Part shown: one piece after another, positions 119 through 2,909 of the stretch
How positions within the stretch are numbered: position 1 is the first letter of the stretch
How the letters are laid out: each line of letters starts with the position of its first letter
IMG/VR virus record: IMGVR_UViG_2609460332_000001
Origin: a virus
Lineage: Duplodnaviria > Heunggongvirae > Uroviricota > Caudoviricetes
DNA: 24,516 nt
Strand: one strand, 5' to 3'
Translations under genes and position numbers: made by a program
Notes under the pieces: model-generated
Told to the model about the DNA's origin: nothing
The model's input: only the letters and a program-made list of their open reading frames with translations
The model's database searches: none

Positions 119-334
119 ATGTACCAGATGGAAAAAATCACAACAGGTGTGTCATACACCACGTCAGCGGTGGGAACGGGCTACTGGTTCCTGCAGTTGC
201 TGGACAGGGTTTCCCCGTCTCAGTGGGCGGCAATAGGCGTGCTGGGGAGTCTGCTGTTTGGGCTGCTGACATATCTGACTAACCTGTATTTCAAAATCAG
301 AGAGGACCGTCGTAAGGCGGCACGGGGAGAGTAA
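119..334 (+). CDS. S: class II holin, phage 21 S (pinholin) family, 71 aa
   Basis: [15 protein letters not shown]...[51 protein letters not shown] closely resembles recalled S21; two TMDs; two in-frame Met codons (M1, M4) like a dual-start motif; GGGAGACGGGG RBS. The ORF-track start at 17 runs through the upstream terminator and is rejected. Confidence 0.85.
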
Positions 335-338
335 TTCA

Positions 339-683
339 ATGACTCAAAACTATGAACTGATTGTGAAAGGGATCCGCAATTTTGAGAATAAAGTTACGGT
401 AACTTTAGCGTTACGGGACAAAAAACGCTTTGACGGTGAAATTTTTGACCTGGACATCTCGCTGGACCGTGTTGAAGGTGCCGCGCTGGAGTTTTATGAG
501 GCAGCAGCCAGAAGGAGCATCAGACAGGTCTTCCTGGATGTTGCTGCCGGGTTATGTGAAGGGGATGAGCAGTCGCCGGAAAAGCGCCCCGTAATTTTAG
601 AGGCGCAGGATGTGTTGATAACCTACAGAGGAAAACTACCGGGAATAATTACGGGTTCTCTGAAGAGTCCGCCGAAATGGTAA
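339..683 (+). CDS. hypothetical protein between holin and endolysin, possibly YdfR/DUF1327-like
   Basis: 114-aa ORF starting 5 nt after the holin stop; same position as ydfR between essQ and rrrQ in E. coli Qin prophage (recalled synteny, family not verified). Confidence 0.55.
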   Translation: MTQNYELIVKGIRNFENKVTVTLALRDKKRFDGEIFDLDISLDRVEGAALEFYEAAARRSIRQVFLDVAAGLCEGDEQSPEKRPVILEAQDVLITYRGKLPGIITGSLKSPPKW

Positions 684-1560: not shown

Positions 1561-1652
1561 GCAGAATATTTTGCTGAAAAATGAGGTTGGCCAACGCGGG
1601 CGGATAACACGAAGTCCTGTGAACTGGCAAAACCTAAGTGAATAAAAGTAAA

Positions 1653-1689
1653 AACCCCGTTTGTTGGCAGCAAGCGGGGTTTTGTTTTT
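1653..1689 (+). terminator. intrinsic terminator downstream of endolysin
   Basis: AACCCCGTTTG / CAAGCGGGGTT stem (one mismatch), 7-nt loop, followed by TTGTTTTTA. Confidence 0.55.
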
Positions 1690-1715: not shown

Positions 1716-1850
1716 TTGATTGATTTTAGCAAACTGATTAGGGAGTTGCGACTCATGATTAGTCAATTACCAAACTGGAAATTTTTGCTGGTCTGGAGCA
1801 TCCCTTTTTTATGGGTAGTATCCCAGTTAATTGTGGCAATTAAGGGGTAG
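1716..1850 (+). CDS. small hydrophobic peptide P1 (31 aa from ATG 1755, or 44 aa from TTG 1716)
   Basis: ...MISQLPNWKFLLVWSIPFLWVVSQLIVAIKG, one predicted TM helix; GGGAGG 5 nt upstream of in-frame TTG 1716; GGGAG 9 nt upstream of ATG 1755. Confidence 0.3.
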   Translation: MIDFSKLIRELRLMISQLPNWKFLLVWSIPFLWVVSQLIVAIKG

Positions 1851-1852
1851 CT

Positions 1853-1984
1853 ATGTCAGACAAACTCATAACGCCGGCAAAGGTCCTGTGTGTGATTGTC
1901 GGTATTTCATTTTCACTAATGCTGGTTGCTCTTTTTCTGTCCCTCGCCTGGGTGATGTTGTCTTCGTCGGGGCTGCTGGGGTGA
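1853..1984 (+). CDS. small hydrophobic peptide P2, 43 aa
   Basis: MSDKLITPAKVLCVIVGISFSLMLVALFLSLAWVMLSSSGLLG; strong RBS AAGGGG 5 nt upstream of ATG; starts 2 nt after the P1 stop; below the ORF-track length cutoff. Confidence 0.4.
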   Translation: MSDKLITPAKVLCVIVGISFSLMLVALFLSLAWVMLSSSGLLG

Positions 1985-2103
1985 CAGTGACTGATGACAT
2001 CAGCAGAGCGCTGGCTTTTGCTATTAAGTGGGTGGCTGTTGGTATTGCTGTGTCTCCGATGCTGTATGGGCTGGCAAAACTGGTCATTGCGCTGAAATCG
2101 TGA
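1981..2103 (+). CDS. small hydrophobic peptide P3, about 40 aa (GTG start overlapping P2 stop as GTGA)
   Basis: (M)TVTDDISRALAFAIKWVAVGIAVSPMLYGLAKLVIALKS; C-terminal part of ORF 1831..2103; shares the motif RA(L/M)AFAI(K/R)xVA(V/I) with P4. Confidence 0.3.
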   Translation: MTVTDDISRALAFAIKWVAVGIAVSPMLYGLAKLVIALKS

Positions 2104-2114
2104 ACTTTAAAAAG

Positions 2115-2201
2115 ATGAGTGCTGAACTTATTCGGGCAATGGCATTTGCCATTCGTATTGTGGCCATTGCTGTTCTGGTCTGGGCAATCCGTTGGTGGTG
2201 A
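2115..2201 (+). CDS. small hydrophobic peptide P4, 28 aa, paralog of P3
   Basis: [28 protein letters not shown]; stop TGA ends 1 nt before the Rz ATG; weak RBS. Confidence 0.3.
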
Positions 2202-2202
2202 T

Positions 2203-2697
2203 ATGAACCGTGTTCTGTGTGTGGTGATTATTGTCATGCTGGTAGCCTGTGGTGTGCTTAGTCTGGGGCTGAATCATTACCGCGATAACGCCATCACCTA
2301 CAAAGCGCAGCGCGATAAAAAAGTCAGTGAGCTGAAACTGGCGAATGCCACTATTACTGACATGCAGCAGCGCCAGCGAGATGTCGCTGCGCTTGATGCC
2401 AGATACACGAAGGAATTAGCCGATGCGAGAGCTGAAAATGAAACTCTGCGCGCTGATGTTGCCGCTGGTCGTAAGCGCCTGCGGGTCAACGCCACCTGCC
2501 CCGGTACCGTGCGTGAAGCCACCGGCACCTCCAGCGTGGATAATGCAACCGGCCCCCGACTGGCAGACACCGCTGAACGGGATTATTTCATCCTCAGAGA
2601 ACGGTTGATGACAATGCAGAAGCAGCTGGAAGGGGCGCAGGAATATATCCGCACTCAGTGCACTAAGCTGGCTTTTTATTATCCGGAGGATACATGA
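2203..2697 (+). CDS. Rz: i-spanin Rz
   Basis: [40 protein letters not shown]... closely matches recalled lambda Rz (N-terminal TMD, coiled-coil periplasmic domain). Start at ATG 2203 rather than ORF-track 2119. Confidence 0.9.
2423..2608 (+). CDS. Rz1: o-spanin Rz1 lipoprotein, embedded in the +1 frame of Rz
   Basis: [25 protein letters not shown]...[32 protein letters not shown]: lipobox LVVSAC and Pro-rich body, as lambda Rz1; wholly inside Rz. Confidence 0.85.
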
Positions 2698-2909
2698 AGA
2701 AATTACGGGTAACCGTAGAACCTTTTCAGGGAACAATTCCGTTCCGTATTTTGCAGCGTGGTCGTGTTCTTGTTGAAGGTTCGTTCAGTGGTAAATGTAC
2801 GCAATTACACTCCCGGACCTTTCAGGTGAATGCCACGAATGAAGAGCTAACCGTGGAGTGTACGATGAATGCCGCTAAATGCCGCATGGTATTACAGCCA
2901 GTGTGTTGA
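2694..2909 (+). CDS. hypothetical protein, 71 aa, translationally coupled to Rz
   Basis: ATGA start/stop overlap with Rz; [37 protein letters not shown]...; no recognised family. Confidence 0.4.

Follow-up and report, generated by a model that had tools for sequence, protein, structure and literature searches.

Four small membrane-type genes in the variable endolysin-spanin slot of a lambdoid prophage

This analysis concerns four very small genes, here called P1 to P4, in a 24,516-nucleotide stretch of viral DNA (IMG/VR record IMGVR_UViG_2609460332_000001), the whole of which is referred to as the window. To judge by the genes it carries, the first 4.6 kb of the window appears to be the late region of a lambdoid Escherichia coli prophage, and the four genes lie there between the endolysin gene R and the i-spanin gene Rz (Table 1); downstream of Rz follow a 71-codon open reading frame (ORF), YlcI/YnfO, an HNH endonuclease gene and a terminase gene. 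An initial annotation of the same DNA had described four tiny, tightly packed ORFs at this place. They are real, with coordinates read directly from the sequence, and the packing is exact throughout: a 2-nt gap after P1, a GTGA overlap between P2 and P3, an 11-nt gap before P4, and 1 nt between the stop codon of P4 and the ATG of Rz at 2203 (...AIRWW-TGA-T-ATG(Rz)). Also as described there, P1 is preceded by the Shine-Dalgarno (SD) sequence GGGAGG (1705-1710), 5 nt ahead of a TTG codon at 1716, and P2 by AAGGGG, 5 nt ahead of its ATG; an AGGGAG stands 9 nt ahead of a further ATG of P1 at 1755, and P4 has no good SD. The segment had been called AT-rich over some 500 bp, which is true of positions ~1600-1900 (42-43% GC) and does not hold for the P2-P4 part, where the GC content is 47-51%, as in the flanks. 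A promoter scan found no plus-strand promoter-like site between R and Rz, including the inside of the cluster, and no terminator was found between P4 and Rz. Chromosomes of many human isolates of the ST131 type (sequence type 131) contain the P1-P4 segment with 100% identity.

Each product carries one hydrophobic helix, as had been proposed: the best 19-residue Kyte-Doolittle windows (KD19), used here as the measure of hydrophobicity, are 2.19, 2.87, 1.90 and 2.21 for P1 to P4. In the whole window a KD19 of at least 1.6 is reached by only 6 of the 121 ATG-initiated ORFs of 25-60 aa, so that four adjacent hydrophobic ORFs are not a product of chance. Coding status was assessed by the ratio of nonsynonymous to synonymous substitution rates (dN/dS) and Fisher tests, using diverged copies from other prophages; the best 80 IMG/VR matches are near-identical and were of no use for this purpose. 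For P3, dN/dS was 0.15 (p = 1e-8), and dS reached 1.6 in comparisons of E. coli with Salmonella; for P2 it was 0.39 overall (pairwise 0.21-0.63, p 6e-5 to 0.013), for the C-terminal part of P1 0.23 (p = 0.002), and for P4 about 0.3 (0.28, p = 0.065), the last from a single diverged copy with 82% amino acid identity (locus L090). Frames other than the annotated ones gave ratios near or above 1, or contained stops. The codon-level check which the initial annotation had called for therefore indicates purifying selection on P2 and P3, moderate on P1 and weak on P4; by their substitution patterns P2 and P3 are clearly coding, and P4 is a short P3 paralogue with weak coding evidence.

Searches with the peptides and the region gave no match in Pfam, NCBIfam or PADLOC, and the region matched nothing in Rfam at E <= 1. 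Matches were obtained in PHROG: phrog_6632 for the 31-aa form of P1 (6e-5), phrog_4906 for P2 (4.5e-21), phrog_1115, 3246 and 4493 for P3 (6e-25 to 5e-17), and phrog_4493 (3.8e-6) and phrog_3246 (9e-5) for P4; all these families are without an assigned function. In RefSeq, P2 and P4 are annotated and P3 appears in a 51-aa form; P1 is annotated in one phage record. A literature search by protein accession, peptide string and topic retrieved no paper on the peptides, and a survey of the lysis cassettes of Shiga toxin (Stx) phages (PMC8136144) does not mention them. The peptides are hypothetical proteins already listed in phage catalogues, from a region known to vary. The antiholin-like, toxin, abortive-infection and superinfection-exclusion roles suggested for them earlier found no direct support, there being no matches to holin, toxin-antitoxin (TA) or defense families, and there is no evidence for any specific function.

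Table 1. Features of the R-Rz region and its surroundings (positions in the window)
Feature	Position	Strand	Remarks
Class II holin (phage 21-type, S21)	119-334		Pfam Phage_holin_2_1
DUF1327/YdfR gene	339-683		
R, putative SAR-type phage lysozyme	1027-1560	+	Pfam Phage_lysozyme 9e-24; RefSeq name rrrQ lysozyme; upstream boundary of the slot
Hairpin 1	1651-1683	+	Terminator scan: 15 pairs, T run
Second small inverted repeat	1692-1696 (GGCAG) / 1711-1715 (CTGCC)	+	Encloses SD GGGAGG; in the predicted fold
P1	1716-1850 (TTG start, 44 aa) or 1755-1850 (ATG start, 31 aa)	+	
Promoter-like site in P1	1723-1751	-	TCGCAA-17 nt-TGcTAAAAT, extended -10 shape
P2	1853-1984	+	43 aa
P3	1981-2103 (GTG start, 40 aa) or 1987-2103 (GTG start, 38 aa)	+	
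P4	2115-2201	+	28 aa
Rz i-spanin	2203-2697	+	Pfam Phage_lysis 4e-51, phrog_13; downstream boundary of the slot
Rz1, embedded in Rz	2423-2608		Lipobox LVVSAC

P3 and P4 had been recognized as a duplicated pair by the shared motif RA(L/M)AFAI(K/R)xVA(V/I), and this relationship is borne out by BLASTP (E = 2e-4) and by their common matches to phrog_4493 and phrog_3246. Taken as a whole, the cluster is not one duplicated unit but a mosaic, composed of three mini-gene families that are unrelated and move independently of one another.

The P1 family has the consensus MIDFSKLIRELRxMxxxLPNWKFLLIW-TMD-(AIKG or IRWW), TMD being the transmembrane domain. Full-length homologues with 56-89% identity are present in Salmonella, Citrobacter, Enterobacter, Klebsiella, Providencia, Brenneria, Pantoea and Symbiopectobacterium, and the N-terminus is conserved in at least nine genera; from this conservation across the Enterobacterales the real form of P1 appears to be the 44-aa one that starts at TTG 1716. 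Its cytoplasmic N-terminus (IDFSKLIRELR) is conserved, with a proportion of nonsynonymous differences (pN) of 0.07, and the TMD is variable (pN 0.34), so that P1 looks like a tail-anchored membrane peptide with a short cytoplasmic segment. Many P1-family genes end in ...RWW-TGA-N-ATG(Rz), the same junction as that of P4. Genes of this RWW type stand alone, ahead of Rz or of baseplate genes. Of the 14 distinct units in which P1 ends in ...AIKG, 10 have a P2-like gene (MS[DEG]K...) 2-5 nt downstream, which suggests that this type of P1 and P2 may be a functional pair; such pairs are also seen outside E. coli (L104, L201, L230).

The P2 family (103 protein clusters; RefSeq WP_001280935.1) has so far been found in E. 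coli only. Its homologue in Stx phages is the 50-aa ORF directly upstream of Rz, for example gp79 of phage P27, and it adjoins Rz in every Stx-phage lineage sampled. P2 was also considered as a copy of the Rz TMD, but the likeness ends at VLCV.

In its full form the P3 family product has 60 aa (M[GEA]KYKRILLRLTMKNGLELKAPVTDD..AFAIKWVAVGIAVSPMLYGLAKL...; this form is called P3-long below), with the TMD as the conserved part; the family comprises 69 clusters from E. coli and Salmonella. The window copy has lost the N-terminal ~20 residues together with its own 5' cassette (see below), and its GTG start overlaps the stop codon of P2. The RefSeq 51-aa model of P3 (WP_042004856.1) starts at a CTG, position 1948 of the window, and is probably an annotation artefact. 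A profile search of 1.84 billion representatives returned 18 clusters only, so that there are no distant relatives to inform on function; a profile search of genome contigs with the P3 alignment yielded no relatives. P4 corresponds to RefSeq WP_032140280.1. In a 38-aa protein, P0048 (MNAELLRAAAFAIKWVAVG...), a P4-like N-terminus is joined to a P3-like C-terminus, and this looks like a recombination product of the tandem paralogues P3 and P4. A signal-anchor-release (SAR)-like nature of the P3 and P4 TMDs was considered and rejected, as their KD19 values (1.9-2.2) are not clearly distinct from the 1.74 of the SAR domain of R; the N-terminus of R (MNAKIRYGLSAAVLALIAAGAPAP) is itself weakly hydrophobic, and we infer the SAR nature of R from its likeness to R21.

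The place that these genes occupy is known to be compact in some phages, Rz following directly after R in lambda and phage 21. In the K-12 prophages DLP12 and Qin it is empty and R and Rz overlap by 4 nt; relative to these the segment is an insertion, as had been supposed. Elsewhere its contents differ from phage to phage: ant and a P2 homologue in Stx phages; P3-long and then a P2 homologue, that is, the reverse order, in O157 prophages and in PhiR5_2; P1 and P2 only in some Shiga toxin-producing E. coli (STEC); and in PhiR5_1 a 231-aa ORF followed by P1'-P2-P3-P4. A fragment related to this 231-aa ORF (L089) is annotated as a KilAC-domain antirepressor. In locus L090 the slot holds four tiny transmembrane ORFs, two of which belong to other families, and it thus draws on a larger pool of mini-genes. 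These two (MQVKDNNKTF..., 50 aa, at 1314-1466, and MIKAETTSQGADD..., 49 aa, at 1631-1780) are interleaved with P3' and P4', and in Dryocola (L110) what remains of a P1 gene is preceded by a relative of the 50-aa family. In sum, the interval between R and Rz is hypervariable.

Of 5426 complete E. coli genomes, 589 carry the whole P1-P4 block and 1862 carry some part of the cluster. Among IMG/VR contigs the block is 99-100% identical, compared with 90-97% for R, the spacer and Rz, which indicates that it moves as a module. Neighboring genes were classified by Pfam scans of cluster representatives. The mini-genes are found behind six kinds of endolysin in all, among them GH108, GH19, Peptidase_M15_4 and CHAP enzymes and, in Salmonella, an HP1-type holin with a lysozyme. 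In one GH108 locus (L092, 70-2253) P3-long, P2' and the gene of a 60-aa lipobox protein (MKRKHW...LVGC...) come after two holin genes and the endolysin gene, and an i-spanin is not recognizable. Outside lysis cassettes, P1 is flanked in one setting by a gpV-like spike gene and baseplate genes and in another by a lipoprotein gene and gpJ; it also lies downstream of an LPD38 protein gene. P3-family genes remote from lysis genes were seen in Salmonella (L093, 2356-2668; L095, 2501-2647) after a SASA esterase gene and before DUF1353, at the prophage end; L093 has tandem paralogues of 47 and 55 aa, and a single 48-aa gene is called in L095. The genes are therefore real, mobile, associated with the slot and of membrane type.

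When P1 loci from six unrelated contexts were aligned, a common order emerged upstream of the gene: first an A run, next a G+C hairpin with a T run behind it, then a spacer of 33-37 nt that contains the SD, and finally the start codon. Hairpin 1, with its G+C stem, preceding A run and following T run, has the shape of a bidirectional terminator, and it stands ahead of P1-family genes in lysis, tail and baseplate modules alike. The initial annotation had described it as an intrinsic terminator downstream of the endolysin; the 15-pair hairpin and its T run are there, but the hairpin is the 5' end of a P1 cassette and moves along with that gene, also into tail and baseplate operons. The 60-aa P3 genes are preceded by this cassette too, down to its spacer (TTTCTGnACCTTGAnnnAGGCAAGGGAGAAC). 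In an RNAalifold analysis of 25 cassettes, 12 pairs were predicted, 7 of them with compensatory double changes. The second inverted repeat, around the SD, seems less well supported than hairpin 1; SD-side stems are present in each cassette type and differ among them (CCTTG/CAAGG, CCTG/CAGG, CGTTA/TAACG). A portable hairpin cassette common to the P1 and P3 families seems not to have been described before, and together with the breadth of the P1 family it goes beyond what the initial annotation had seen. In Salmonella-type P3 cassettes (L096 ~2470-2500, and about 30 IMG/VR loci) a 26-nt insertion between the cassette SD and the start of P3-long creates an 8-codon mini-ORF, M[CGV]REV[LYF]SL, which may be an upstream ORF.

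Given the late strand, the lack of an own plus-strand promoter and the packing up to 1 nt from Rz, transcription of the cluster would most likely occur only on the Q-antiterminated late transcript. The explanation that we put first, tentatively and at somewhat less than an even chance, is that the four products are accessory inner-membrane peptides of the late operon that modulate lysis. The segment would be accessory cargo of the hypervariable endolysin-spanin slot, each gene encoding a single-pass inner-membrane peptide with a predicted N-in orientation. The Q-antiterminated late transcript would read through the upstream hairpin, and the mini-genes would be translated together with Rz. The peptides would then act in the inner membrane late in infection and tune the timing or efficiency of lysis by way of holin, SAR endolysin or spanin, as modulators of envelope disruption and not as essential lysis components. 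Both the late-only expression and the lysis-modulating role are what we infer from this arrangement.

Several observations weigh against this explanation. The occurrence of P1 in tail and baseplate modules, and of P3 beside SASA esterase and DUF1353 genes, makes the late operon, not the lysis cassette, the common denominator of the sites. The families are dispensable, many lambdoid phages being without them, and in one STEC lineage (L087) an in-frame stop makes P1 itself dispensable. The missing SD and marginal evolutionary support of P4 count here too, and a terminator ahead of the genes would be polar in phages that have no antitermination. Finally, P1-P4 show no homology to any characterized lysis protein in Pfam, PHROG, NCBIfam or the literature.

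Like holin/antiholin pairs and lysis regulators (S21 pinholin/antipinholin, T4 RI, P1 LydB), the peptides are small inner-membrane proteins encoded in a lysis cassette on the late transcript; unlike these, they come after the endolysin gene and not before it, have no dual-start motif and are dispensable in many relatives. None of them matches a holin or antiholin family in Pfam, the PHROG lysis set or NCBIfam, whereas the true holin of the window does, and their C-termini of 2-7 residues with at most one charge do not form the charged tail of the holin type. Spanin features are likewise absent: i-spanins have a periplasmic coiled-coil domain behind an N-terminal TMD, and o- and u-spanins a lipobox, whereas P1-P4 have only 2-7 periplasmic residues and no lipobox, and Rz and Rz1 are intact downstream. 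The Mu releasin gp25 is a 99-aa, acidic, N-out/C-in protein of the DUF2730 family, its cytoplasmic domain measuring about 70 aa (PMC9239132). P1 resembles it in that a short cytoplasmic domain (in P1 a conserved segment on a variable anchor) is tethered to the membrane and encoded beside SAR endolysin and spanin genes; it differs in being 44 aa long, predicted N-in and net basic, and no Pfam match to PF10805 (DUF2730) was obtained for P1-P4.

Of the known systems, P1-P4 would appear to work most like the moron-type accessory genes of late operons. As with morons of lambdoid phages as defined by Hendrix and Juhala (lambda bor and lom, HK97 gp15), extra genes stand between conserved late genes, are present or absent among syntenic relatives, differ in part from their flanks in composition, often encode small membrane or envelope proteins, and occur at different sites. 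Classical morons have their own upstream promoter, a downstream terminator and expression in the lysogen; P1-P4, by contrast, have the terminator-like hairpin on their upstream side, show no plus-strand promoter and are coupled to Rz. These differences bear on the suggestion that the peptides benefit the prophage, being made in the lysogen and protecting or changing the host through superinfection exclusion, anti-phage defense or membrane stress tolerance. Superinfection exclusion at the inner membrane is known from HK97 gp15 and T4 Imm. We consider this suggestion unlikely. It would account for the patchy presence among related phages, for the several late-operon sites, including the tail modules in which known superinfection-exclusion morons reside, for the lower GC of the P1 part and for the wide distribution of the cluster in clinical genomes of the ST131 type. 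However, neither the stretch between hairpin and P1 nor the inside of the cluster contains a plus-strand sigma-70-like promoter, the upstream hairpin would block lysogenic read-through rather than allow it, PADLOC matches none of the peptides, and a promoter at this place would express Rz and Rz1 too.

A different role for the cassette is suggested by the complementary strand. Within P1 lies a minus-strand promoter-like site (1751->1723) with a 17-nt spacing and an extended -10 of the form TGNTAWWAT, a motif that occurs just twice in the 24.5-kb window. It would, as a hypothesis, start an antisense RNA of ~75 nt at ~1716 that runs across the SD and ends at hairpin 1. In P3-long genes the promoter scan found TAGTCA-18-TATACT at the same relative place on the minus strand, as the sole promoter-like match in the E. 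coli O157 region and as one of two in the Salmonella region. Both sites aim at the hairpin, which has T runs on either side, and in locus L088 the scan calls the hairpin a minus-strand terminator. Across genera, codons 2-13 of P1 show a proportion of synonymous differences (pS) of 0.25, about three-fold below the 0.61-0.72 of the rest of the gene, and in the unbiased set the synonymous changes in these codons are confined to the promoter spacer and leave the hexamers untouched. Another minus-strand promoter-like site antisense to P1 (1859->1830) was discarded, since homologues do not conserve its -10.

These elements would fit a module of the type I TA kind, in which the RNA covers the start codon and SD of P1, and elsewhere of intact P3-long, so that the peptide remains untranslated until late transcription outruns the RNA. 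There is a precedent in hokW-sokW of the Stx prophage Sp5, where a small membrane toxin under antisense control aids phage release (PMC8621323). The resemblance to type I systems (hok/sok, ldr/rdl, ibs/sib, zor/orz, hokW-sokW) lies in small hydrophobic peptides, with P1-P4 (28-44 aa, KD19 1.9-2.9) inside the size limit of 60 aa, and in tandem paralogues; for P1 and P3-long the promoter-like site and the terminator-shaped hairpin would, if functional, add an antisense RNA over the translation start. Unlike them, the putative toxin has no promoter of its own and no long structured 5' untranslated region (some 33 nt separate hairpin and start codon), the ORFs are packed in an operon with Rz, and no Rfam, Pfam or NCBIfam family matches. 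The promoter sites, which were found post hoc, are moreover weak, with 3/6 and 4/6 in the -35; some members have TAATAT as the -10 or an altered -35; the wobble pairs of hairpin 1 suit the plus strand better; and P2, the window P3 and P4 have no such minus-strand elements. The type I toxin idea of the initial annotation is thus retained as a hypothesis for P1, where the site and hairpin exist, and is given up for the other three. We regard such gating as quite improbable; it is not exclusive of the lysis-modulator explanation.

In a broader version, which we also hold to be unlikely, a ~70-nt cassette of Enterobacterales temperate phages, made up of the co-varying hairpin, the SD hairpin and the SD, would deliver P1- and P3-family genes into late operons, each with a hidden minus-strand promoter for a ~75-nt antisense RNA. 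The result would be an antisense-gated membrane-peptide module, for example a threshold timer for lysis, and a lambdoid counterpart of the promoter-early stem-loop (PeSL) cassettes. In T4-type phages these place a conserved stem-loop 5' module ahead of varied small ORFs. In both cases a stem-loop 5' module seemingly mediates the shuffling of small ORFs between genome positions; the P1/P3 cassette differs in belonging to other phages, in being unrelated in sequence and in having no plus-strand promoter.

It is also rather doubtful that the mini-genes are selfish or decaying cargo, persisting by easy recombination through shared cassettes and junctions, with most copies, above all the truncated window P3 and the tiny P4, useless to the phage. 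Signs of decay do exist: the window P3 is without its N-terminal 20 aa and its cassette, P4 has 28 aa, no SD and the marginal p value given above, P1 has a nonsense allele, and a chimeric protein (P0048) as well as frameshifted forms exist; that the block is nearly identical from phage to phage indicates recent spread and not necessarily selection. Against this stand the strong purifying selection on P3, which holds even between E. coli and Salmonella (dS 1.5, dN 0.10), the retention of P2 beside Rz in every Stx-phage lineage and the conservation of the P1 N-terminus over at least nine genera. A last alternative, that a 123-aa minus-strand ORF (1866-2237) is the real gene and the plus-strand ORFs its shadows, is effectively refuted: it is the longest ORF of the segment, and over P3, with which its frame has the third codon positions in common, it gives a dN/dS of 0.30; the plus frame, however, is the better fit there (0.15), over the P2 part the minus-strand frame has a dN/dS of 1.3 and 13 stops across variants, and the long ORF cannot be conserved, since P2, P3 and P4 occur separately and in other orders elsewhere.

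The lysis cassettes of lambdoid and Stx phages are taken as a solved system of three or four genes, yet about one third of the complete E. coli genomes carry part of this cluster. If the peptides tune lysis timing or membrane integrity, phage burst would be affected and, in Stx phages, toxin release too. The shared hairpin cassette offers a concrete and testable mechanism for the shuffling of tiny genes among phage late operons, and an antisense gate, if true, would add a new regulatory layer to late gene expression.

Two further ORFs of the region may be mentioned. The 71-aa ORF downstream of Rz (2694-2909, plus strand) overlaps the Rz stop with its ATG (ATGA) and matches only the middle of the 291-aa phrog_2571, and is possibly a fragment. 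Between the DUF1327 gene, whose 3' end it overlaps, and R, a 90-aa ORF (649-921) lies on the minus strand, an antisense-oriented gene within the lysis cassette; it matches phrog_2411 (1e-58) and is hypothetical in RefSeq, and an extended -10-like sequence, TGGTAAAAT, is located on the minus strand at 683-691.

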